This document shows, piece after piece, positions 5,426-40,191 of a DNA stretch of 40,191 nucleotides. Position 1 is the first letter of the stretch; every line of letters begins with the position of its first letter. Source of the DNA: a virus. The notes beneath the pieces are model-generated. The model did no database searches. It was not told the origin of the DNA and worked only from the letters and a program-made list of their open reading frames with translations. Location: the UHGV virus genome UHGV-1553673; one strand, given 5' to 3'. The position numbers and the translations under genes were made by a program.

Positions 5426-5584
5426 TTATGGCGATACCAGAGAGCTTTCTGTGTGTACATGCGTCTCTGTAACTTGCTCTCCTTCACTGTGGTTGCAAGT
5501 GACATGAATATCTCCTTCGTTACCGATTAATTCTTTCATCTGACGAATGAATTCTTCGTCTGACCAGTTATCTGTAAAACTCAT
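5426..5584 (-). CDS. Hypothetical small protein (52 aa from MSFTDNW)
   Basis: ATG overlaps the stop of an upstream 56-aa ORF (ATGA). Confidence 0.35.
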   Translation of the reverse strand: MSFTDNWSDEEFIRQMKELIGNEGDIHVTCNHSEGEQVTETHVHTESSLVSP

Positions 5585-5751
5585 GGACGGCCTTGTTGTT
5601 TCAAAATATCCCAAAGCTTTTCGAGCAAGCTTTTCATTCTTGGTTGTTTAAAGTCTGCTCCGGTTAAAATATTTTTTCGTGAATGCTGTACCGATAAAAT
5701 CGGGTTGAAAGGGCGAACCGATGCCGCCCCTGCAATAGCGAACTGTTGCAT
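5581..5751 (-). CDS. Hypothetical small protein (56 aa), kil-region position
   Basis: GAAGGAG RBS 6 nt before the ATG at 5751; below the 60-aa cutoff of the ORF track. Confidence 0.35.
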   Translation of the reverse strand: MQQFAIAGAASVRPFNPILSVQHSRKNILTGADFKQPRMKSLLEKLWDILKQQGRP

Positions 5752-5834
5752 AGGATGCTCCTTCTGTTTGATTGCATAACGAAAACGCCTCGAGTGAAGC
5801 GTTATTGGTATGCGGTAAAGCCGCGCTCAGGCGG

Positions 5835-6809
5835 CTATTTGATGTCTTGCGTGTAGCCTGTACCGCAACAGCATGAGCATTGCTCTATTGGCGCGTGAAT
5901 GGTATCCATAAGCGTCGTAAGGAAGTTATCAATCATTTCCTTTAGCTCCCATTCGTTATTGGCTTTGAACCCTTTAATCGCCGTATAACCTTTGTAATTT
6001 TCTTGGTCATGTGTCATTTGGAAAATTTCAATTTCTTTCACCGTGTCAGTCTTAAAGTGCAACTTTGCTCTTTGCTTCTTGGTTCTGGCAAAAATATCCT
6101 GATATGAATATGTGTGAGGCTTAAGGAGCGGTATTATTTTTTTAACGGTAAAGCAAAATGCGTAATCACTTGTTATTCTAGCCAGTTTGTTGTCGATGTT
6201 ATCTTTTACGTGCTGGCGTACAATGTCATACATTTCTTTTGATGAAATTTCACAAGGGCTGTTAGCCCGCAAAGGCTCAGGAATTATGATGCAGTCAACA
6301 AGAGAGTGTTTTACGTTTATGTTTTTTACAACGTACCTCTCCTCCCGGAACCCAACATGCCTAATTGCAGAGTAATTAAATTCTGGTGCGTCACGAAAAT
6401 TTTCAACCTCACATACTAATGTGAATTCAGCGTCAACTGGAGAGGTGTAATCAGGTGCAGTATCGTATTTGTATTCATAAAGAGAGCCTCTGATATCCTC
6501 GTCCACTGCGTCACGCTCATTGTAACTAAGTGTCAAAGGGTATTTTTTACTCTCAAGTTCAGCATCTTTAAGCTCGTAGCGAACATTAATTCTTTCACCA
6601 GAGATAATTCTCTCAACCTTTTCAGGGTAATGTTCAATTTCAAACCAGTTTTTGTGAAAGCTGGCTTTGGGTTTAACTCCGTCAAATAGGAGATCAGCAA
6701 TTTTAGATTGATGGTACTGGTAGTGATAACCGTCCTTTGCTGTGCAATCAGTGATAAAACATTTACCAGCGTCGGTTTTAATAATGCTTATTTGCAATGC
6801 GTTACTCAT
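5835..6809 (-). CDS. Hypothetical 324-aa protein in an AT-rich moron; candidate accessory/defence gene
   Basis: GC visibly lower than the flanks; GGAGG RBS before the ATG at 6809; hairpins flank both ends; cysteine-rich C-terminus CSCCCGTG; no family recognised. Confidence 0.6.
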   Translation of the reverse strand: MSNALQISIIKTDAGKCFITDCTAKDGYHYQYHQSKIADLLFDGVKPKASFHKNWFEIEHYPEKVERIISGERINVRYELKDAELESKKYPLTLSYNERDAVDEDIRGSLYEYKYDTAPDYTSPVDAEFTLVCEVENFRDAPEFNYSAIRHVGFREERYVVKNINVKHSLVDCIIIPEPLRANSPCEISSKEMYDIVRQHVKDNIDNKLARITSDYAFCFTVKKIIPLLKPHTYSYQDIFARTKKQRAKLHFKTDTVKEIEIFQMTHDQENYKGYTAIKGFKANNEWELKEMIDNFLTTLMDTIHAPIEQCSCCCGTGYTQDIK

Positions 6810-6983
6810 ATCTCCTCCAGGCAAAAAGAATGCCCTCACACTGGAGGGCAAAGAAGATTTCCAATAATCAGAACAAGTCGGCTCCTGTTTAGTTACGAGC
6901 GACATTGCTCCGTGTATTCACTCGTTGGAATGAATACACAGTGCAGTGTTTATTCTGTTGTTTATGCCAAAAATAAAGGCCGA

Positions 6984-7607
6984 CTATGCGGCCTCGGAAG
7001 GAAGTCCAATCATCTTATTCAAATCTTCTACCCGTAAAGCAGGAAGTGCTGTACTTGCTTTGTCTGCTTCTTTTGGTAGCAATTCTTTGCTTTCAGGCCA
7101 AACTTCAATAAGTCGCTTAACTGTTGTGACTGAGTTCAAAGCAGCCCATACATTTGATTCGATATCCTTTTTCTTGGCTTCAAGTTTTTGTTGCAATGCG
7201 CAGATTTCATCAAACCTTTTTGTTATTTCGTGTTCTGCGTCAAACATGCATTTATCTTTGGTCGGAGTAGGGAGCAATATATCTTCGCCGTTGCCGTCTT
7301 TCCCATATGAATGCCATCCAACCCTTCTGCCAGATACAGTCAGATAAATTGAAGTAGAACGAACATCGTATGAGTAAAATGAACATCCCATCTTTTCAAG
7401 TTCTTCACTTATAGCTACCAACTTGGATGATAACTGATCCACTTCCTCAGTTTTCTTTTTACCGCCAAACGCAATAACTCTGGCGTCAAGTGCAAGCTGG
7501 TTCTTTAACTTTGTTACTTCTTCAAGTTCAGTGAAAACCCCAGACTTAATTAAAGCGTTACGAGCGATTTCCTCTTTCATTCTCGTAGTTAAGCGGATTG
7601 ATGACAT
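6984..7607 (-). CDS. Hypothetical 207-aa protein (AT-rich region)
   Basis: RBS gagagg before the ATG at 7607; central coiled-coil-like stretch; family uncertain. Confidence 0.5.
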   Translation of the reverse strand: MSSIRLTTRMKEEIARNALIKSGVFTELEEVTKLKNQLALDARVIAFGGKKKTEEVDQLSSKLVAISEELEKMGCSFYSYDVRSTSIYLTVSGRRVGWHSYGKDGNGEDILLPTPTKDKCMFDAEHEITKRFDEICALQQKLEAKKKDIESNVWAALNSVTTVKRLIEVWPESKELLPKEADKASTALPALRVEDLNKMIGLPSEAA

Positions 7608-7672
7608 ATTAATTCCTCTCAAATAAGTGCTTTGCTGCCAAAACAATGAACCATCCGGAAATTCCAGATAGT

Positions 7673-7897
7673 TCATAATTCACTCTTCAATACTTCCAAC
7701 TTACTAATCGCCGATAGATATCCGCGCTGATAGGGCATCATCATTCCTTCGAGCTTGCCACTTCTTAACTCCTCCCTGAGCAATTGTATTGCTTGATCAA
7801 TAACCTCTGCCTTAGCGTCCTTTATGGCTTGCTTGCGGGGCTTTGCTTTCTGCTTTGGCAGATTTCTCAAGCATGATGGAATGTATGTCTGATTCAT
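7673..7897 (-). CDS. Hypothetical small protein (74 aa)
   Basis: Lies directly downstream of the N-like gene on the same strand. Confidence 0.4.
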   Translation of the reverse strand: MNQTYIPSCLRNLPKQKAKPRKQAIKDAKAEVIDQAIQLLREELRSGKLEGMMMPYQRGYLSAISKLEVLKSEL

Positions 7898-7900
7898 CAC

Positions 7901-8173
7901 TTACCTGGCTGTCAGTTGTTTTGATTTCCGGTAGCCTGCCGAGTAAATGGCTACGTTTGGCAGGCAAATACTTCCACTGCATTCTTCTGCCTTCTTGCAG
8001 CGAAGGCTTCCGAGTGATGCTGCTTTGTCTGCTCTGACGCAACCAGAGAGATTTAGCGCAATTTTTCGCGCCAGTGCTTCATTACTGCGTCGCTCGGCAA
8101 TAAGTTCTGCTCTGCGAGCTTTGTAGCGGCTTTTTGCCGTACCTTTGGATTCTTTCCAGACAATGGTTACCAT
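7901..8173 (-). CDS. N-type transcription antiterminator (P22 gene 24-like)
   Basis: Arg-rich motif near the N-terminus (KSRYKARRAELIAERR); C-terminus ...AGYRKSKQLTAR resembles P22 gp24; AAGGAG RBS; nutL immediately upstream. Confidence 0.75.
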   Translation of the reverse strand: MVTIVWKESKGTAKSRYKARRAELIAERRSNEALARKIALNLSGCVRADKAASLGSLRCKKAEECSGSICLPNVAIYSAGYRKSKQLTAR

Positions 8174-8283
8174 GATGGTCTCCTTTAAGTGGCTTTGGCG
8201 CATGACGCGTCGAGGTGCTTATCTTCTCGATCGCTGTCTTGCAGCTGCAATTCGCGCCATCCCCAAAACCACTCAAGTTCTGG

Positions 8284-8323
8284 TCTCAACGGTTAGGTTG
8301 AGAGTCCGTCGATGTTAAAGAGC
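8284..8323 (-). promoter_or_regulatory. nutL: boxA GCTCTTTAACA plus boxB hairpin
   Basis: Minus-strand boxA at 8313-8323 and hairpin TCTCAAC-CTAACC-GTTGAGA at 8284-8303. Confidence 0.7.
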
Positions 8324-8369
8324 CTGCCAATCTGTTCCTTGTGGCGTCTCAGCGTCCTGCTGATGGAAA

Positions 8370-8685: not shown

Positions 8686-9237
8686 TTACTGACCTTTCTT
8701 AAGGTACAAGTTTATTAGGAAAAATATAGTTGGCATAGCAAGCGAGGCCAGGAGAACCCCGAGCATCCATACTTTTACATCTGCTATCTTGGTTTCCAAA
8801 GCGGAAAATTTAGCTTCAAAGTAGTCAACCGATGGTTTCTTAGATAATGAAGCATCAAAATCCAGGCTCTTCTGTAAAAGTACAGCGGTGTCTCTTTTGG
8901 CGTCAGTAGAATCAGAAGATATTTTCCGGGTATCCTCTTTAATTCCTGCCATGCTGCTCTTGATGTGCGCAACTTCAGCTTCAAGAACTGCTAATCGCTT
9001 ATCCATGTCGTCGCCTCCATCATCACTTGTTGTTTGAATGATCTCAGTATCATCCATCACAACCGATGTGACAATCCGTTTTTCTTTATCTGAAGCAGCA
9101 ACAGAACAAGCTTTCATCAAGAGCGTTGCTTGGCTTGATGCTACAGAAGAAAATTCCAGCCCTACTGTAGAGCCATTCTTATCAGAGTAAGCAATTACTA
9201 GCTTTCCCTCATCCAAAGATGATTGAGCTGCATTCAT
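8686..9237 (-). CDS. Hypothetical 183-aa protein with C-terminal transmembrane anchor; second gene of the cI-linked operon
   Basis: C-terminal hydrophobic helix VWMLGVLLASLAMPTIFFLINLYL; coiled-coil-like middle; GAGGA RBS; starts 6 nt after the upstream stop. Confidence 0.6.
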   Translation of the reverse strand: MNAAQSSLDEGKLVIAYSDKNGSTVGLEFSSVASSQATLLMKACSVAASDKEKRIVTSVVMDDTEIIQTTSDDGGDDMDKRLAVLEAEVAHIKSSMAGIKEDTRKISSDSTDAKRDTAVLLQKSLDFDASLSKKPSVDYFEAKFSALETKIADVKVWMLGVLLASLAMPTIFFLINLYLKKGQ

Positions 9238-9243
9238 CAGCTT

Positions 9244-9525
9244 TTATTCCTCGAACATGCTTTTCAAGGACTGATAGAAATCGAAGGCCTTCTGTTTACT
9301 TAAAGTCACGGACGCAACCTTAGTGCGCTGCATTCCTGCCACTGCGATTTCGCCATTCATATGGCCGATGACAGGGGTGCTATTGAGAAAAACGAAGTTA
9401 AAAACTTCGTAGCCATTGTTATCCGTTCCGATGGTTACAACCCCATCAGCATTAGTTTCAATATAATTTTTGGACTCCAGCACATCATTGATATGTGCTA
9501 AGGTAACTTCTTGTTTATCGCTCAC
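9244..9525 (-). CDS. Hypothetical 93-aa protein; first gene of the cI-linked operon
   Basis: GTG start with AGGAGA RBS 7 nt upstream; lower GC than the flanks. Confidence 0.55.
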   Translation of the reverse strand: MSDKQEVTLAHINDVLESKNYIETNADGVVTIGTDNNGYEVFNFVFLNSTPVIGHMNGEIAVAGMQRTKVASVTLSKQKAFDFYQSLKSMFEE

Positions 9526-9647: not shown

Positions 9648-10295
9648 TCAGCCAAACGTCTCTTCAGGCCACTGCGCCTTAACTACCTTGCCTATGATGC
9701 GGCAGCTATGGTCGCAATCCAGGGTTCTATATGCCGGGTTTAAAGGTACCAGGTAACTAACCCCTGCATCCTTCTCATACTTCTTGAACGTTGCCTCTGA
9801 ATCACCATTTGCAGAAGCCACGCAGAAATCCCCAGACTCTACCGGCTCAGCCGGATCAACGAGTATCAGCATGCCTTCCGGAAAACTTGGACGAACCCCC
9901 TGAGGCGCCGTCATTGAATGCCCCTTCACCTCAAGCCAGAAAGCTTTTTCGCTGGCTTTTGTGGTCGTTGGGACCCATGCCTTTGCATCGCTGGCTGTGT
10001 AGCTTCCCACCTCCGAAAATGGCCCGGCCTGCACTGAAGAAAATAACGGGTATTCATATTGGCGAAATACGGCGTCTGAATCCTCGCCAAACATTATTTT
10101 TGCCGGAGATACGCCGAGTGCCGCCCCAAGAACCAGCGCGTCATCCGCGCTAACCTTTCTTGTTCCTAACTCGTAGTTCCCCAGGCGTGAAGGCGCAGCC
10201 CAGCCGCAAAGCTTGGCCAATTGAGCCTGGCTAAGTCCTTTAGCTTCTCTAAGGGACTTTATCCTTTCCCCGATAATTTCATGCATCGTTTTCAT
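9648..10295 (-). CDS. cI: CI/C2-type prophage repressor (HTH + S24 LexA-like peptidase domain)
   Basis: N-terminal XRE HTH ([11 protein letters not shown]); C-terminal GHSM...KK autocleavage motifs; divergent from cro. Confidence 0.9.
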
Positions 10296-34047: not shown

Positions 34048-34548
34048 TCACCTACTCAACAGATGGTCAGCAACCATGTTTGCTGCCTTATAAGCTATAG
34101 CCGCTTCATCAATGGTGTTGAATCTCCCAAGGGTTATGTTTTTACCTGAGACATTTATCTGAGCTTGCCATTGATTTCTGGCTTGACAGAAAGTTACCCC
34201 CTTGATTCCAGCATTGCTATTTCTAGGTCCGACATTTAATGCATTTACGACTCTGCTGACATCCCTAAGGTTTGAGATTGCGTTATTTCTTCTGTTTCTA
34301 TCAATGTGGTCAATCTCTTGTTTGGGCCATTCGCCATATACATACAGCCAGGCAAGTCTATGTGCAAAATATCTTACGCCATCAATATTAATTGCGTTAT
34401 ATCCATAAGAAATTGTGCCAGCAACTTTCCCAACAGCACCTCTGGCGCTTAATTTCTTTTTCCAAGTGAAAATTCCTGTTTCTTTATTGTAATCGAGAAC
34501 CTCCATAAGGCGCTCCCGAGTTACTACCTCGTGACGTCTCTTACTCAT
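34048..34548 (-). CDS. HNH homing-type endonuclease with AP2-like DNA-binding domain
   Basis: HNH block [33 protein letters not shown]; AP2-like [17 protein letters not shown]; GGAGA RBS before the ATG at 34548. Confidence 0.75.
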
Positions 34549-34570
34549 TATTTTCTCCGGAATGTTTATT

Positions 34571-36745
34571 ATGCCAGAACAATTATACAACGTTGTTGTT
34601 TCACAACCAAGTCAGTTATTTACTTTAGCTCGCTCGTTTAAAGCAAATGCCAATGGCAAAATTTATATAGGAAAAATTGACACTAACCCGGTAAATCCTG
34701 AAAACCAGATTCAGGTTTATGTGGAGAACGAAGACGGCTCTCACGTTCCTGTTTCGCAACCAATCATCATTAACGCTGCTGGTTATCCTGTATATAACGG
34801 ACAGATTGCCAAATTCGTTACTGTACAGGGCCATTCTATGGCTGTTTATGATGCGTACGGTGCTCAGCAGTTCTATTTCCCTAATGTACTGAAATATGAC
34901 CCCGACCAATTCAGTATTGACATCGTTAATCAGCTTGCTCAAACGGGTAAATATTTAGATGATGAAAGTAAAGGTGATGCGTTAATTGGCGTTAAACAGC
35001 CTTTTTTTGATGCAATAAGAAGGACTCAGCATGATAAAAATTCTGACCTGCTATCCATACAAGATTTAGGGGCAATAAGTGGCTTAGCTAATCCAGAGGT
35101 GGATGACAAAGTTATTTCTGTGCTTAATGCTAATGCTGGATTGTTAATTCCTGCTGGATTTGTCTACGTGACATCTAAGCCAATAGCTACATCGGCAGGT
35201 AAAGTCTTTAGCATCGTATGCCCAAATGGAAGGGCCACCATCAAAGCATCAGGAAACTATGCAATGTTCACTCAACCAGGCATGTTCAAATTTGAGAGAT
35301 GTCTTTTTGAAAACATACTGTTTATTGGTAATGGAGTATCTGATCTGAAATCAGTGTTCATGGAGGCTGATGATGGTGAGTGGGTGGCTAACTTTGCAAC
35401 ATATAACTGCTCATGGGAAGCATTCCATACTATATGGAATGCTTCATGGATTGCAGTATATCATTATTACCCTAAATTTAAATCTGTGAACGATTCAGGA
35501 TATATTCTTACTACGAATAAGTCTGGTGCAAATAACTTTGCAGCATTCAATCTCAATGTTATGGATAACCCAATATTCGAAAACTGTAGAGCAAGAATTT
35601 ACTTCGATATAACAGGTGGATTTAATTTTACCATCAACAATCCATGGATTGAGAAAGGTGAGGTTTTTGGTGGTGCATTTTTTAGACTAAGGCAGTTCTT
35701 TAATTTCAAAGTTATTGATGGTTGGTTTGAGTATTTCAAAGGGGGAAATTTTCTGTACTTAAGAACAGATGGCACAGAGAATACACAATCTGACAACATA
35801 ACTTTTGATGGGATGCACATTAATAACTCTCGCTCTGATTCAGAATTTAAAGGATTGGTTTTAATGGATCAGCCGCAATATGCAGAGAATTATACCGATC
35901 CTAAATTTACGTTTAAGAATATTGTAGAACACAATAGCTCTTCTTCAGGATGGTACTTACTAAAATCCGGTGATGTTACCAATCGCTCAGAATCACTTAC
36001 CGTAATAGAAAATCTTCGTCTTAAATATGGACATCCACCTTGCTCAGATGGAATGACTATAGCAAGAACACAAGACGGAAATAGCCCAGACATTAAAAAC
36101 TCTACAAGAAACCTTAGCACTAATGGTTTACAGTTTCTGCCTAGAGCCTTTCAAACAACAACATACCGGACAAAAAATGGAGAATATCAGCAACAACAAA
36201 TAGTTGATAGTACATCTAATATAGCATACTGGAATATCGGTACCTCAACGGTTCTCGTGTGGGGCGTAGATTATGTTAGGCCTGGTCGGCAGAACGCTCA
36301 AACATGTGGAACGTCAGCATATGCATGGTCAGGTGGGTATACACAAACAGCTTTTCAGGTCACGTCAGACAGAAACTCAAAAACAGAAGAGTCACAAATA
36401 CCTGATGCTGTTCTCGACGCCTGGGGTGACGTTCAGTATGTATCATATAAATTAAAGGCAAGCGTGGCAGAAAAAGGTAGTAAAGCCCGGAGACATATTG
36501 GGGTCATAGCCCAAGACATCAAGACAGCTTTTGAATCACATGGGGTTGATCCATTCGAATATGGCATACTATGTTATGACAATACCCCAGCAACAGAAGC
36601 TGTTTACGATATTTTAGAAGATGGTACTCAGGTAATGCTTCAGGAGGCACGTGATGCTCACTCAGGTTACACTGTACGCTACGAAGAAATACTTTGTCTT
36701 GAGGCTGCATATATGCGTAGAGAGATAAAAAGGATGCAGAAATAA
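34571..36745 (+). CDS. Tailspike: P22-like N-terminal head-binding domain, distinct central beta-helix domain, C-terminal intramolecular chaperone (S74-type) domain
   Basis: N-terminus aligns to P22 gp9 (VVVS.P...F...[33 protein letters not shown]); C-terminal ...[10 protein letters not shown]... chaperone-like module. Confidence 0.85.
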
Positions 36746-36774
36746 ACAAACGCAATAGTCTATAGTTATTATCT

Positions 36775-36812
36775 ATATACCACCTCAACATAAGAGGTGG
36801 TATATTTTTTTG
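36775..36812 (+). terminator. Rho-independent terminator after the tailspike gene
   Basis: 12-bp stem ATATACCACCTC / GAGGTGGTATAT followed by T7. Confidence 0.75.
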
Positions 36813-36837
36813 GGGAGCGACTAATAAATTATATATT

Positions 36838-38625
36838 TTATTTCAAAGATTGAAGTAAGTCTGTTTTTTTGTCTAAGACTTCTCCAATGTAACTTGCTCC
36901 ATATTTCGTTAGATGGTTTGCATCATATGATAAAAATTTGCCATTCTCATCAAAAACTCTAACCATTCCATTGTTGTCTTTTATAAGGTCAAACAAATCT
37001 ATGTAGTCATCGCCAAAAATCATTTTCGCCTTATTGTTAAACTCTATATATCTTGATAGCGGGTATGTTTTTGCTAAAACTCTGTCATTAAGAGACAGGT
37101 TAACAGCAAAGTTATTGTTATACCCGAAGTTTTTTGTGCCAATCAAGTACATTTTTGCAGTTGTTTTTGATTTTATGTAATCGTAACAGTGTTTTAACTT
37201 TTCAACGTTATTATTATAGTCGCCTGCACCCCAATTCTCCGAATATAAAATAATGTCTGAGTCATTCAAGTAGTAATCTAATTTATTTTTATTATCTATT
37301 GACCAATCACATCCACCCTCAAAATATACAATATTAAGATCATTTGTTTTAATCTTTGTAGATATTGCATTAATTAAATCTCTCGCATATGAGTTACCCA
37401 TGATTAATATTTTCTTTCCATTGTCTGAGAACTCAATATTCTTTAATTTCTTCGGGCTATCCACATACTCCTGTGGATTTCCTCCATATGCAAGATCAGG
37501 CCTGATATTTTGCAATCCATATGTTTTGTGCATCAAAATTCCTGATGCTGATAACACCAACGAAAATGCTAATGTATATGATAAGATTTTTTTTGTAGAT
37601 GTTTTTCTCTTGTTTCTGAATGGTTTTTCTACAAAAACATAAGACATCCACGATATAATAAAAATTAAAGGAATGGATGCGATAAAATATGTTGTTGACG
37701 GTTCAAATTTTGAGTTTAATCTTATAAATGCAAAAACAGGTTGATGCCAAAGGTATAGAGAATAACTTATCATGCCACATAACACAATTGGTTTTATTGA
37801 CATGAGCTTTCCAATTCCTTTAGATGCATTTGAATGCATTAAAAACAAACATGCACCAAGAACTGGAAATAATGTTTCAAATCCAGGGTGTGATTTTTTA
37901 CCATTCACAATGAAGTAACTTGATATTATCAATAAAAAACCAAGGTATGCTAAGATGTTACTTTTTCTTTTTATTTTATAGTGCGCAATAGCGGCAACCC
38001 CACCAAGAGCAATCTCCCACGCCCTTGAAGGGAGCATAAGAAATGAAAGCTCCATATTATGCACTGTTGTAATTGTTGCATATAAAAAACTGGCAATTGA
38101 TATTACCAGTAAAAACATAAAACTATTCTTTATTAGTTTATTATGATTTATTGAGTAAATTATATATATTATTACAGGGGCTACAAGATAATACTGTTCT
38201 TCTACAGCAAGACTCCATGTGTGATACAATGGTTTAAATTCAGATGCTGTAGACCAATATCCTGACGTTAAGTACAATAATATATTGTTTGCTGAAAAAA
38301 TTGTTGCAACAACTGATTGACCTAGATTCTTTAGGTCATATGGAACCATCATAAATAATGATATAATGAATGTTACTGATGTCATTAGAATTAATGCAGG
38401 CGCAATTCTACGAACCCTTCTCTCATAAAACCCAGAGAATGTAAATGTTCTATTGCTGCATTCTTTCAGCAAAATGCTGGTAATTAAAAAACCACTAATA
38501 ACAAAAAAAACATCTACTCCAAGAAAGCCGCCAGGAATCCATTGAACACCTGCATGAAAAAAGATAACAGGTAAAACAGCTAATGTTCTCAACCCATCAA
38601 TTTCGGGTCTGTATTTCAGTTCCAT
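36838..38625 (-). CDS. O-antigen acyltransferase, OafA/Oac-type (acyltransferase-3 membrane domain + SGNH domain); lysogenic conversion gene
   Basis: 595 aa; multi-TM N-terminal half (MELKYRPEIDGLRTLAVLPVIFFHAG...); C-terminal GNSYARD SGNH-like motif; strongly AT-rich. Confidence 0.8.
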   Translation of the reverse strand: MELKYRPEIDGLRTLAVLPVIFFHAGVQWIPGGFLGVDVFFVISGFLITSILLKECSNRTFTFSGFYERRVRRIAPALILMTSVTFIISLFMMVPYDLKNLGQSVVATIFSANNILLYLTSGYWSTASEFKPLYHTWSLAVEEQYYLVAPVIIYIIYSINHNKLIKNSFMFLLVISIASFLYATITTVHNMELSFLMLPSRAWEIALGGVAAIAHYKIKRKSNILAYLGFLLIISSYFIVNGKKSHPGFETLFPVLGACLFLMHSNASKGIGKLMSIKPIVLCGMISYSLYLWHQPVFAFIRLNSKFEPSTTYFIASIPLIFIISWMSYVFVEKPFRNKRKTSTKKILSYTLAFSLVLSASGILMHKTYGLQNIRPDLAYGGNPQEYVDSPKKLKNIEFSDNGKKILIMGNSYARDLINAISTKIKTNDLNIVYFEGGCDWSIDNKNKLDYYLNDSDIILYSENWGAGDYNNNVEKLKHCYDYIKSKTTAKMYLIGTKNFGYNNNFAVNLSLNDRVLAKTYPLSRYIEFNNKAKMIFGDDYIDLFDLIKDNNGMVRVFDENGKFLSYDANHLTKYGASYIGEVLDKKTDLLQSLK

Positions 38626-38797
38626 ATGTTATACCATTTAATGTTAATTACATCAAAAAAAGACGAATGCTACATGTGTGATTGTTTCTGTGGAAACATG
38701 TTAAATTTATTTGTATTCTATCATTGCTGTGAATCATGATCGATACTGTGACTATGCAATGTTATTCTAATTTTTGCTCATGCATGGGAAAACAATT

Positions 38798-39979
38798 TCA
38801 TTGATGTGGCCTAAAAGTTGCGCTATTTTTCTCTCCATCAAGCCAATCTGCCCACCACTGCATCATTTCTCTGCGCTTATCTAGATACTGAGCATGGTTG
38901 TAAATCCCGCGCACAGATCCGCCGTTGGCATGTGCAAGTTGCACTTCAATAGCATCAGCAGGCCATTCGTGCTCGTTCATAATCGTGCTGAATTCATGCC
39001 TGAATCCGTGACCGCTTTCCAGACCCTCATAGCCGATTCGTTTGATCACAAGTAATACCGCGTTCTCGCAGATTGGCTTCTTCTTATCGTTACGCCCGGC
39101 AAAAACAAACTCTGATACTGGTTTGGTGATTGAGCTTAGCGTAGTGAGAAGTTCAACCACCTGGTCTGACATAGGAACCACATGAATTTTGCGTCCCTTC
39201 ATCACACTGGCGTCGATAGTGATAATCCTGTTTTCAAAATCGACGTTCTTCCATTGCATGGAACGAAGCTCTTTCGTTCTTAGGGCTGTGTAGCGTAAAA
39301 CTTTGGTCGCAATGAGCGATACGATGCTTCCTGAAAATGTTGCCAGTGCTTTGTTGAATGCCGGGATCTGGTCTGCAGGAAGAAACGGGAAGTTCTTCTT
39401 GCGGTATCCTTTCATGGCGTCAGCAAGGTCAGGTGCCGGGTTATATTTAGCCCTACCAGTGACAATAGCGTAACGGAAAACCTCGCCGCATCTTCTGCGG
39501 GCTTTATTTGCTCGCTCCATTGCACCGCGATCTTCAAATCTGCGGATTACTTCCAGTAGTTGCATCGGCTCAATATCCTGAATTTCAAGACCGCCGATGA
39601 TGGGTAAAATGTCGTCATCAAACATTTTTGCAAGTTCATTTGCATAGCCTACTGACCAGACTTGCTTCTTGTGCTCGTACCATTCCTTGTAAATGGCGCT
39701 AAAGGAATTGTTGTTAGATGAAGCCTTTTTCGCCTTTACCGGATCGATGCCAACCGAGATGTCTTTCCTCGCGGTCCATGCTTTATCCCTTGCTTCCTGC
39801 AAAGTCATAAGCGGATATTTTCCGACAGTCAGGATTTTCTCCTTACCGTCAATCTTGTAGCGAAGCTGCCATACCTTTTTCCCTGATACAGGGACATAAA
39901 GGTACAGGCCATTACCATCGAGTAGGCGGTATGGTTTTTCTTTCGGCTTTGCTGCTTCAATCTGCTTAACGGTGAGCAT
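38798..39979 (-). CDS. int: Tyrosine integrase, P4/IntS-type
   Basis: N-terminal arm-binding domain (LTVKQIEAAKPKEKPYRLLDGNGLYLYV...); C-terminal catalytic R..H..R..Y region; adjacent to the tRNA; the ORF extends to 40015 with a non-ATG start. Confidence 0.9.
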   Translation of the reverse strand: MLTVKQIEAAKPKEKPYRLLDGNGLYLYVPVSGKKVWQLRYKIDGKEKILTVGKYPLMTLQEARDKAWTARKDISVGIDPVKAKKASSNNNSFSAIYKEWYEHKKQVWSVGYANELAKMFDDDILPIIGGLEIQDIEPMQLLEVIRRFEDRGAMERANKARRRCGEVFRYAIVTGRAKYNPAPDLADAMKGYRKKNFPFLPADQIPAFNKALATFSGSIVSLIATKVLRYTALRTKELRSMQWKNVDFENRIITIDASVMKGRKIHVVPMSDQVVELLTTLSSITKPVSEFVFAGRNDKKKPICENAVLLVIKRIGYEGLESGHGFRHEFSTIMNEHEWPADAIEVQLAHANGGSVRGIYNHAQYLDKRREMMQWWADWLDGEKNSATFRPHQ

Positions 39980-40140: not shown

Positions 40141-40155
40141 TGGTGTCCCCTGCAG
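40141..40155. repeat. att core copy inside the tRNA 3' end (integrase-proximal)
   Basis: Exact 15-nt repeat of 442-456. Confidence 0.7.
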
Positions 40156-40191
40156 GAATCGAACCTGCAATTAGCCCTTAGGAGGGGCTCG
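40141..40191 (-). tRNA. argW: tRNA-Arg (anticodon CCU), 3' portion; truncated by the window edge
   Basis: Minus strand reads ...AGCCC-CTCCTAA-GGGCT (anticodon stem-loop with CCT), T-arm GCAGG-TTCGATT-CCTGC, acceptor and ACCA. Confidence 0.85.

Follow-up and report, generated by a model that had tools for sequence, protein, structure and literature searches.

A predicted Gad1 inhibitor of Gabija defense encoded by an accessory gene in the early-left operon of a P22-like Escherichia coli prophage

The early-left operon of the prophage considered here contains, directly upstream of its cIII gene, an AT-rich gene for a protein of 324 amino acids. The window, i.e., the whole stretch of DNA analyzed, comprises 40,191 nucleotides (UHGV virus genome UHGV-1553673). 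What this protein does, and whether its gene is a self-contained moron or a cargo of the operon in which it resides, are the questions raised by the locus. The original prediction, made from the sequence alone, described a terminator-flanked moron with an unrecognized product. The protein is, with high probability as judged from its sequence and predicted fold, Gad1, with which phages inhibit the Gabija (GajA-GajB) complex. Its gene, hereafter gad1, is an accessory gene that a P22-like E. coli prophage carries in its early-left (pL/N) operon. Gad1 was described in 2023-24 along with its structure and mechanism, as was a version from an E. coli prophage, and there is little new biology in this gad1 itself.

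The gad1 gene and the family of its product

The gad1 coding sequence (5835-6809, minus strand) starts at position 6809 and ends with a TAG stop codon at 5835. A Shine-Dalgarno sequence, GGAGGA (6813-6818, minus strand), is located 4 nt, counted from GGAGG, before the ATG. The 324-codon gene with a GGAGG ribosome-binding site (RBS) of its own is thus as originally described. The start at 6809 is supported by this Shine-Dalgarno sequence and because all homologues, as well as the RefSeq coding sequences in three E. coli genomes, start with MSNALQ. A 356-amino-acid version of the reading frame, starting from an ATG at 6905, was rejected, since the 96-nt extension holds a terminator hairpin and is conserved as non-coding backbone in phages that do not contain the gene. 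The C terminus of the protein reads CSCCCGTGYTQDIK.

A Pfam scan matched the product over its full length to PF25705, "Gabija anti-defense 1" (E 4e-67, 227.3 bits, with a gathering score of 27; residues 6-320 on positions 2-291 of the 293 of the profile). The same family was assigned to all 55 homologue clusters that were found. A phmmer search of the PDB gave Gad1 of phage phi3T (8U7I) as the sole match (E 2.6e-43, residues 14-319). An AF2 model, computed with an alignment of homologues as input, has a pLDDT of 82.3 and, in a Foldseek search of the PDB, retrieved 9a3w_I (E 1.5e-25, TM 0.65/0.70 over 324 columns) and 8u7i_I (TMt 0.83), whilst no chain other than Gad1 scored below E 0.001 and the next match was at E 0.07. 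The structure-based search that had been proposed as a check thus revealed a recognized fold. The description of the protein as unrecognized and devoid of any placeable motif does not hold: a Pfam family covers the protein in its entirety, and a cryo-EM structure and, in this case, a 98.8%-identical, experimentally verified homologue are available. All NCBI members listed for this protein cluster are named "hypothetical protein"; with such names, a reader without tools cannot recognize gad1, although routine scanning with Pfam is enough to identify it. The product does clearly match a known phage protein, an outcome that had been named as speaking against the original prediction, but the protein matched is an accessory anti-defense protein and not a housekeeping one.

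The residues with known roles at the interfaces of phi3T Gad1, i.e., Y190/F192, Y103 and C282/C284/C285 (Antine et al., PMC10781630), are all retained. Y190 and F192, which contact GajA, correspond to Y216 and F218 within the segment SDYAFCF; among 34 aligned family members, F218 is invariant and Y216 is at least 90% conserved. An F192R substitution abolishes the function of phi3T Gad1 (Antine et al., PMC10781630). The tyrosine of the fist-fist contact, Y103, corresponds to Y111, which is invariant in the 34 members, and the basic β5-β6 loop ARTKKQRAKLHFK (TKKQRAK) aligns with AMYKRRKPKLEKR of phi3T. C282, C284 and C285, which are located at the tetramer interface of the Gad1 shoulder (Antine et al., PMC10781630), correspond to C311, C313 and C314. 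C311, C314, G316 and G318 are invariant in the 34 members and define a family motif, CxxCxGxG, whose middle position is His or Cys in most members; an extra cysteine, C315, is present here at a variable position of the motif. Thus, the C-terminal cysteine cluster that had been remarked upon is real, but it is a conserved family motif rather than unusual. Since cysteine mutants of Gad1 were still largely functional in vivo (Antine et al., PMC10781630), conservation of these residues is weak evidence of activity. Speculatively, in the reducing cytoplasm the motif could serve as a metal hook between subunits instead of forming a disulfide. A defense role for gad1 was also considered and was rejected, as a PADLOC scan of Gad1, Nmad5 and the other small early genes yielded no match to a defense system.

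The closest characterized relative is Gad1 of E. coli MS 115-1 (IMG gene 648535034; RefSeq WP_000063561.1), which has the same length and is identical at 320 of the 324 residues, with 5 nt differences between the genes. This protein is listed as "experimentally verified: yes" in Supplementary Table 8 of Yirmiya et al. (bioRxiv 10.1101/2023.05.01.538930), where non-toxic Gad1 homologues, including the one from E. coli, "efficiently inhibited Gabija defense"; the assay employed Bacillus cereus Gabija in B. subtilis and not Gabija of E. coli. From the present allele to that of MS 115-1, the substitutions are A127V, H151Q, G153E and C315G. Three of the four are located in the length-variable arm, and A127 and G153 are the consensus in the close cluster. 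The fourth, C315, occupies the variable "x" of CxxCxG, where homologues have G, K, N, E, D, C or H; it is unique among 10 close cluster members, in which G315 is nearly invariant, but a cysteine is also found in the family member P0029. Four of the five nucleotide differences are non-synonymous. Positive selection was rejected as an explanation, since the changes are too few and the 4:1 ratio fits neutrality. The exact same protein is encoded on at least 4-5 independent metagenome contigs. The present allele may be expected to act on Gabija like the MS 115-1 protein.

A cassette in a slot directly upstream of cIII

gad1 is located between the gene for antiterminator N (8203-7901) and the cIII, kil, erf, ssb and abc2 genes. 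Directly downstream, a cIII-like gene (5581-5751, minus strand; phrog_550 "CIII anti-termination", E 1e-22), whose equivalent in related phages is annotated as cIII, marks the position of lambda ea10 and P22 gene 17. Upstream, the neighbor is a gene for an Nmad5-domain protein (6984-7676, minus strand; PF18757, E 5e-72), which is followed by a terminator-like hairpin (6995-6976) in a terminator scan. As to this neighbor, a role as an anti-Tmn gene was considered, but according to the literature mutations in nmad5 allow escape from sensing by Tmn, which does not establish an anti-defense role.

Comparison with phage isolates revealed what has been inserted. When the locus was compared with these by megablast, the flanks alone matched (33% coverage), which uncovered an empty site. 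In HK542 and mEpX1, which are otherwise collinear with the window, the 1012-bp segment 5814-6825 (minus strand), consisting of the RBS, gad1 and a 3' GC hairpin, is replaced by 4 nt, and the two hairpins of the slot are 38 nt apart. BLAST break-points agree with these borders: the window up to 5813 and from 6826 onward aligns to adjacent positions in loci L002 and L005. Thus, the genes on the two sides of gad1 are direct neighbors in related phages, as expected for the accessory insertion in the early-left operon that had been proposed, and the neighborhoods of relatives show the same slot, either empty or with differing cargo. In other prophages, the cargo is P22 gp17 (PF17420), annotated as "superinfection exclusion," a lambda Ea10-like DUF2528 protein or a 138-amino-acid protein of phrog_8967. 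The swaps are ORF-precise, with the RBS on one side and the 3' hairpin on the other being retained; the other cargoes, too, have a GGAGGA-type RBS at the equivalent place. The flanks of the slot are found in roughly 2255 E. coli genomes.

The hairpins that had been noticed on both sides of the gene are present. Upstream, an intrinsic-terminator-like stem-loop (6850-6831) with T-run (together 6822-6850, minus strand; ΔG -12.3 kcal/mol, z -2.7; tail TTCTTTTT) is found in every locus that bears a cargo as well as in HK542 and mEpX1, where the site is empty, and its equivalent in mEpX1 is annotated as a rho-independent terminator. Downstream, a small GC hairpin, AGCCGCCTGAGCGCGGCT (5819-5836, minus strand; ΔG -10.3, z -1.9), overlaps the gad1 stop codon and is not followed by a T-run; as a conserved element, it follows each of the cargoes of the slot (gp17, DUF2528 and the 138-amino-acid ORF) but is absent from the empty site. 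A stronger hairpin (5774-5813, core 5803-5784, minus strand; ΔG -14.5, z -5.1, with 0 of 200 shuffles as stable) is located between the cassette and the RBS of cIII; it is part of the backbone and is kept in HK542, mEpX1 and loci L006-L008. Further upstream of the slot, a strong 14-bp hairpin (6905-6950, minus strand; ΔG -22.8, z -6.7) is identical in the HK542, MS 115-1 and ABWA45 contexts despite differing upstream genes. Hence, the flanking hairpins belong to the slot and not to gad1. They flank any cargo, and the upstream one and the stronger downstream one are present even in the empty site, which does not support the insulation of the gene that had been proposed. In a search of the whole window with Rfam at gathering thresholds, no RNA family was found in or near the locus, the only hit being a tRNA fragment at the window end.

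The base composition is less distinctive than it had seemed. The GC content of the gad1 ORF (39.1%) is below that of the window (46.8%), i.e., 1.5 SD below the mean of windows of the same size, of which 8.7% are as low or lower. However, the upstream Nmad5 gene is similar (40.0%), with a GC3 of 0.351 vs. 0.397 for gad1, and GC3 is 0.39 for cIII and 0.38 for the kil-like gene. These comparable values make the dip a feature of roughly 2 kb (about 5850-7800), which is sharp only against the erf/abc2 side. Thus, gad1 does have a lower GC content than the window mean, but the deviation is weak and not specific for this gene, in contrast to the marked difference from the neighbors that had been perceived.

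gad1 is rare in E. coli. It was found in 3 of 5426 complete E. coli genomes (CP146665, which is MS 115-1, CP087564 and CP022154) and, by tblastn against the phage collection, in no enterobacterial phage isolate; among metagenome contigs, ERZ1745129 NODE_435 carries it. In the three E. coli genomes and in Cedecea, it immediately precedes cIII within an operon headed by N, and in Xenorhabdus it is also located in the early-left region. The gene resides in a prophage here as well, and many prophages carrying Gad1 are found in Gabija-positive genomes (Yirmiya et al., 10.1101/2023.05.01.538930). A role of the gene in the phage-host arms race is supported. Given its rarity in E. coli, the present prophage is one of few natural coliphage carriers of gad1, and it could be used for studies of Gabija evasion in a genetic system of the lambda/P22 type.

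The stretch between N and cIII is a recognized accessory region with counter-defense genes, such as ral and abc2. A bolder proposal, which we consider rather doubtful, is that the site directly upstream of cIII is a conserved plug-in slot for counter-defense genes in lambdoid early-left operons. Such a slot would be bounded by the terminator hairpin and GGAGGA RBS on one side and the AGCCGCCTGAGCGCGGCT GC hairpin on the other, and its conserved flanks would allow for swapping of whole ORFs by homologous recombination. If so, Ea10/DUF2528 and the 138-amino-acid phrog_8967 protein, alongside P22 gp17, would likely be uncharacterized anti-defense proteins, following the "same locus" logic that uncovered Gad2. 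Ea10/DUF2528 and phrog_8967 are, therefore, candidates for anti-defense screening.

Expression, mode of action and alternative explanations

The homologue of N (7901-8203, minus strand; PF25694 N_peptide, E 1e-16; phrog_271) marks the operon as an N-dependent early-left operon. A putative pL (TTGACC-17 nt-GACTAT; 8400-8372, minus strand) and a putative nutL (8284-8324, minus strand), with boxA-like GGCTCTTTAACA (8324-8313) and a boxB-like hairpin (8303-8284), were read by eye. A consensus promoter scan did not flag this pL, but in HK542 a lambda-PL-like promoter is annotated at the equivalent place. Neither the scan nor inspection by eye revealed a σ70-like promoter upstream of gad1 (6950-6810, minus strand). 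All promoter-like sites in the region are inside the ORF and were taken as chance occurrences, since they are fewer than in shuffled sequences (4 vs. 8.3). Thus, a promoter of its own was not found for gad1 downstream of the terminator that precedes its start codon, although a non-consensus promoter may exist there, and the proposal of a moron is, strictly speaking, not supported. The gene order and the hairpins suggest that its expression is N-dependent.

After infection or induction, transcription from pL would be modified by N at nutL and would pass the intrinsic-terminator-like hairpins downstream of N, including that at 6850-6831. The gad1 product would be a delayed-early protein, silent in the repressed prophage. 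Its protomers would bind the dimerization surface of GajA via the SDYxFC segment (Y216 and F218) and the basic loop, four of them would lock together via the C-terminal shoulder with the CxxCxGxG cysteines (C311, C313 and C314), and the N-terminal arm and fist (Y111) would reach round to the partner from the other side. In this way, the 4:4 GajAB complex would be enclosed by eight Gad1 copies, which would prevent the binding and cleavage of DNA by steric hindrance, and the phage could replicate in Gabija-positive hosts. For Gad1 of phi3T and Shewanella, binding to GajAB, assembly into an octameric web and inhibition of both the binding and the cleavage of DNA were demonstrated (Antine et al., PMC10781630), and for MS 115-1 Gad1, inhibition of Gabija in vivo was shown (Yirmiya et al., 10.1101/2023.05.01.538930).

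The protein could have the Gad1 fold but be directed in Enterobacterales mainly against another OLD-family (ABC ATPase-Toprim) or similarly sized defense complex, with only partial activity against Gabija. Between the enterobacterial clade and phi3T Gad1, identity is only about 30% and the arm differs in length, Gad1 was verified only against Bacillus Gabija, OLD-family nucleases are diverse, and further phage inhibitors of these nucleases exist. Yet, the nearly identical MS 115-1 protein does inhibit Gabija, the residues that contact GajA do not vary within the family (with at least 90% conservation in the case of Y216), many Gad1 prophages reside in Gabija-positive genomes (Yirmiya et al., 10.1101/2023.05.01.538930), and nothing points to a second target; we consider this explanation improbable. 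Even less probable is an attenuated or inactive allele, a decaying passenger in which G315C, resulting in four cysteines in five residues, or the changes at H151, A127 and G153 disturb tetramerization of the shoulder or the geometry of the arm. That C315 is unique among the 10 close relatives and adjoins the interface cysteines, and that most of the differences from MS 115-1 are non-synonymous, could be explained in this way, but position 315 varies freely in the family, with Cys in P0029, A127 and G153 are cluster consensus, and a 4:1 ratio on 5 changes is the neutral expectation. In addition, the reading frame is intact and preceded by a strong RBS, the identical protein recurs on independent metagenome contigs, and Gad1 tolerates peripheral and even cysteine mutations in vivo (Antine et al., PMC10781630).

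The least probable explanation, to which we give hardly any credence, is a classical moron, i.e., a self-contained gene that is expressed in the prophage and benefits the lysogen, e.g., by superinfection exclusion or defense. The insertion between genes that are adjacent in relatives, the flanking hairpins, the AT-richness relative to the genome mean and the "superinfection exclusion" protein gp17 in the same slot elsewhere would all fit. However, an own promoter was not found, the hairpins are backbone elements that the empty site also contains, the Nmad5 gene has an equally low GC content, PADLOC gave no defense match, and the family was experimentally shown to be involved in anti-defense and not in defense. 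Thus, a Gad1 inhibitor of Gabija, carried as cargo of the early-left operon, is the explanation we prefer.

Comparison with known systems

The present protein shares with phi3T Gad1 (8U7I/9A3W; PMC10781630) the Pfam family PF25705, the predicted fist-arm-shoulder fold (TM 0.65-0.70 over the full length and 0.83 on the shoulder), the Y/F motif contacting GajA, the basic loop, the fist tyrosine and the C-terminal cysteines. The two are about 30% identical, and the present protein is longer (324 vs. 295 amino acids), with a longer arm. Also the carriers differ: phi3T is a 128-kb SPbeta-like siphovirus, whereas gad1 is found here in a 40-kb lambdoid podovirus-type E. coli prophage. Moreover, phi3T Gad1 is toxic in Gabija-containing cells, whilst the E. 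coli homologue is not (Yirmiya et al.).

In MS 115-1, like here, gad1 is located in a lambdoid early-left operon upstream of cIII, kil, erf and abc2, with the same conserved 5' segment, terminator hairpin and RBS. However, the upstream neighbors are small hypothetical genes and a DUF7446 gene instead of Nmad5, the downstream cIII allele is different, and that prophage is integrated at ybhC, whereas the present one is located in the csc/tRNA region. In SPbeta-like phages, the gad1 locus can instead hold another anti-Gabija gene, that for Gad2 (SPbetaL7), likewise a case of one slot with alternative counter-defense genes. Gad2 has no sequence similarity to Gad1 and is a predicted nucleotidyltransferase enzyme, in contrast to the steric wrapper Gad1.

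The position of lambda ea10 (DUF2528) and P22 gene 17 is the same slot as that of gad1 in E. coli prophages, as judged from the lambda gene order (PMC10695390). The proteins encoded there are unrelated to Gad1, the gad1 gene is three times longer, and Ea10/DUF2528 is without an established function. The morons of lambdoid phages of the HK97/HK022 type are extra genes between neighbors that are adjacent in relatives, with a low GC content and a 3' hairpin. gad1 resembles them as an extra gene that is followed by a 3' hairpin and is lower in GC than the genome on average, but it differs in that no own promoter was detected and in that the flanking hairpins are part of the backbone. Rather than from a promoter of its own, gad1 probably is transcribed from pL, and only in lytic growth.

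Identity, reading frame and distribution of gad1

The 324-aa minus-strand protein matches the Pfam family PF25705, "Gabija anti-defense 1", over residues 6-320 (E 4e-67; 227 bits vs. a cut-off of 27). A sequence search of the PDB returned a single match, Gad1 in structure 8U7I (E 2.6e-43, residues 14-319), whose C-terminus, CKCCKGRG, is aligned with CSCCCGTG in the window protein. Its PHROGs family, phrog_20113, is labelled function unknown. The gad1 gene was discovered in the Bacillus phage phi3T; 94 homologues were found and five were tested, including prophage proteins of E. coli and Enterobacter roggenkampii, and the four that showed no toxicity "efficiently inhibited Gabija defense" (Yirmiya et al., bioRxiv 10.1101/2023.05.01.538930, preprint of the Nature paper). 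Supplementary Table 8 of that preprint lists the protein of E. coli MS 115-1 (IMG 648535034, 324 aa) as "experimentally verified: yes" and gives its sequence, with which the translated RefSeq CDS of MS 115-1 agrees exactly. Compared with this protein, the window protein has 4 substitutions in 324 residues (A127V, H151Q, G153E, C315G; 98.8% identity, 5 nt differences), and it shares 77.8% identity with the verified protein from E. roggenkampii. In view of the full-length family match, the 8U7I match and this published near-identical homologue, the original prediction of an unrecognised protein does not hold. The Gad1 family, its structure, its mechanism and the E. coli homologue have all been published, and the finding is thus already known.

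The open reading frame, read from the sequence, extends from an ATG at 6809 to a TAG at 5837-5835 (minus strand). The ribosome-binding site of its own that had been claimed for the gene was found as GGAGGA at 6818-6813, 4 nt ahead of the ATG. A mechanical ORF list gave a 356-aa frame from an ATG at 6905, but the start at 6809 is preferred because the extension lacks a ribosome-binding site, contains a terminator-like hairpin and is conserved non-coding backbone in phages without gad1. MSNALQ is the N-terminus in all homologues and in the RefSeq CDSs of three E. coli genomes.

A tblastn search of 50,697 phage records detected gad1 in only 19, i.e., SPbeta-like Bacillus phages including phi3T, phages of Clostridioides, Vibrio and Shewanella, and one unclassified bacteriophage record from human faeces; some records annotate Gad1, and no enterobacterial phage isolate was among them. 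Three of 5426 complete E. coli genomes (MS 115-1, CM2010-0578/1 and ABWA45) carry the gene, with about 99% DNA identity. This rarity is modestly informative, as is the persistence of the name "hypothetical protein" in NCBI: a 108-member cluster of the window protein covers E. coli, E. albertii and Citrobacter amalonaticus, and all NCBI members listed are named "hypothetical" or "uncharacterised". The identical protein is encoded on metagenome contigs in a prophage that borders the csc sucrose-utilisation genes. For the exact window allele, ENA/Logan metagenome-assembled contigs were the only source: L014 (ERZ1745129 NODE_435) and L015 (ERR528744_32608), which carry the same prophage next to these genes.

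Functional residues and structural model

Eight Gad1 copies wrap 4:4 GajAB (4:4:8 stoichiometry, about 775 kDa) and stop DNA binding and cleavage through steric occlusion (Antine et al., PMC10781630). In phi3T Gad1, the GajA interface is centred on Y190/F192, with F192R abolishing function, and includes a basic beta5-beta6 loop; C282/C284/C285 form the shoulder tetramer interface, and the N-terminal arm, which is variable in length, ends in a fist, where Y103 mediates fist-fist contact (PMC10781630). The aligned counterparts in the window protein are Y216/F218, the loop TKKQRAK, C311/C313/C314 and Y111. Invariant in a 34-member family alignment are Y111, F218, C219, C311, C314, G316 and G318; therefore, what had been described as an unusual cysteine cluster is the family motif CxxCxGxG. 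An AlphaFold2 model derived from the same 34 aligned sequences (pLDDT 82.3) matched, below E 0.001, only Gad1 chains when compared with the PDB by Foldseek (9a3w_I: E 1.5e-25, TM 0.65/0.70, whole length; 8u7i_I: TMt 0.83); all non-Gad1 PDB matches had E 0.07 or more.

The C-terminal motif (window 5835-5900, residues 311-318; alignments A3/A4) has the pattern of a DnaJ zinc-finger repeat. At the position of phi3T C284, most family members have His or Cys and some have Ser, Ala or Asn. Inter-subunit disulfides were modelled in the published structure; a metal site between subunits would be a candidate alternative.

Position 315 is freely variable in the wider family (G, K, N, E, D, C or H), and Cys occurs there only in the window allele among 10 close relatives. 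The other three substitutions relative to MS 115-1 are located in the variable arm, with A127 and G153 being the cluster consensus. An inactive allele is unlikely, given the intact reading frame and ribosome-binding site, the recurrence of the identical protein on several contigs and the tolerance of Gad1 to mutations of this kind (Antine et al., PMC10781630). A different or broader target among OLD-family relatives is conceivable but unsupported. A role in defence, or the moron role originally proposed, is contradicted by the demonstrated anti-Gabija function of the family, by the lack of any PADLOC match for gad1 and by the absence of a promoter of its own: a promoter scan and reading by eye revealed no sigma-70-like promoter between the upstream hairpins and the gad1 ATG. 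Inhibition of Gabija remains the preferred reading.

Prophage setting, expression and base composition

The window represents an E. coli prophage of the P22-like (IME10-like) type. At one end, a P4-type integrase gene (40015-38798) adjoins the 3' part of a tRNA (40144-40191, Rfam), which is cut by the window end and is probably the attachment site. A tRNA-Ala(cgc) called by ARAGORN at 10015-10097 lies inside the repressor ORF and is probably a false positive. The gene order around gad1, all on the minus strand, is pL/nutL, N (7901-8203), a phrog_5305 gene, Nmad5 (7676-6984; PF18757, E 5e-72), gad1, cIII (5751-5581, directly downstream of gad1), small kil-region genes, erf, an ssb-like gene and abc2. 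The putative pL (TTGACC-17-GACTAT, 8400-8372) and nutL (boxA-like, 8324-8313; boxB-like hairpin, 8303-8284) were read by eye.

Computed folding energies and z-scores showed that the hairpins reported on both sides of the gene are real. Upstream, hairpin 1 (6850-6831, minus strand; dG -12.3 kcal/mol, z -2.7) is a stem-loop followed by TTCTTTTT, and its equivalent is annotated in mEpX1 as a rho-independent terminator. Downstream are a small 3' hairpin (5836-5819, minus; dG -10.3, z -1.9, no T-run) and the hairpin 2 stem-loop (5813-5774, minus; dG -14.5, z -5.1). Another terminator-like site (6995-6976, minus) is 3' of Nmad5. The stretch from N to cIII contains three terminator-like hairpins. The simplest model would be transcription of gad1 from pL with N-mediated readthrough. 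The gene would then be delayed-early upon infection or induction and silent in the repressed lysogen, timing that would suit an inhibitor of a host nuclease, unlike a classical prophage-expressed moron.

A very stable 14-bp hairpin (6950-6905, minus; dG -22.8 kcal/mol, z -6.7) has no T-run and no Rfam match. It lies within a ~120-nt segment that is identical in the HK542, MS 115-1 and ABWA45 contexts despite different upstream genes, and might mark a recombination boundary or a site of RNA processing.

The markedly lower GC content claimed for gad1 was borne out only in part. The ORF has 39.1% GC vs. 46.8% for the window, i.e., 1.5 SD below same-size windows, 8.7% of which are as low or lower. 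However, the dip is modest and not specific to gad1, because Nmad5 (40.0% GC; GC3 0.351 vs. 0.397 for gad1) and cIII and the kil-like gene (GC3 about 0.38-0.39) are similarly low. The Nmad5 gene, as AT-rich as gad1, is found at the same position in a large fraction of E. coli prophages; in Dhillonvirus, nmad5 point mutations, but not gene deletion, lead to escape from the Tmn defence (PMC11846954). The lowest-GC stretch of the window is 34551-39250 (975-bp windows down to about 30%), containing the receptor-binding part of the tailspike (34562-36745) and, adjoining the integrase, a 595-aa AT3+SGNH acyltransferase (38625-36838, minus). As a typical lysogenic-conversion gene of the O-antigen-modifying kind, the acyltransferase gene illustrates an AT-rich moron better than gad1 does.

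Elsewhere in the prophage, two minus-strand ORFs (8686-9525) between the repressor (10295-9648) and pL occupy the position of rexAB in lambda. Their products, of 93 aa (9525-9244) and 183 aa (9237-8686; hydrophobic helix at the C-terminus), match phrog_12039 and phrog_12602, which have no function assigned in PHROGs, and gave no Pfam or PADLOC matches. A good terminator-like hairpin (8679-8656) lies 3' of the two ORFs, which are candidates for exclusion genes expressed by the prophage. An HNH_3 + AP2 domain protein (34048-34590, minus; PADLOC "homing endonuclease", E 2.8e-07) is encoded between an Mnt/Arc-like regulator (33949-33656) and the tailspike gene.

The slot upstream of cIII

In HK542 and mEpX1, the sequences matching the window up to 5813 and from 6826 are 4 nt apart, which fixes the limits of the insertion exactly. 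In this empty site, a mere 38 nt separate the starts of hairpin 1 (6850-6831) and of the core of hairpin 2 (5803-5784). In other E. coli prophages, exactly the same slot is filled by one different gene each: a PF17420 P22-gp17 "superinfection exclusion" gene (L006:1728-2039), a DUF2528 gene of the lambda Ea10 family (L007:1728-2096) and a gene for a 138-aa phrog_8967 protein (L008:1736-2152). Their homology to the window ends only a few bases away from the start and stop codons of gad1. A GGAGGA-type ribosome-binding site and the small 3' GC hairpin AGCCGCCTGAGCGCGGCT are common to all cargo-bearing loci; this hairpin is absent from the empty site. The flanking hairpins are thus features of a reusable slot and not of gad1. 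This ORF-precise cassette slot is modestly informative, and hypothetically nominates the Ea10/DUF2528 and phrog_8967 proteins as counter-defence candidates.

Ea10 is also encoded just upstream of cIII in lambda itself (PMC10695390). Among more distant homologues of Gad1, which keep the same kind of position, that of Cedecea lapagei is encoded immediately ahead of cIII in an operon led by N, and that of Xenorhabdus is encoded in the early-left region.
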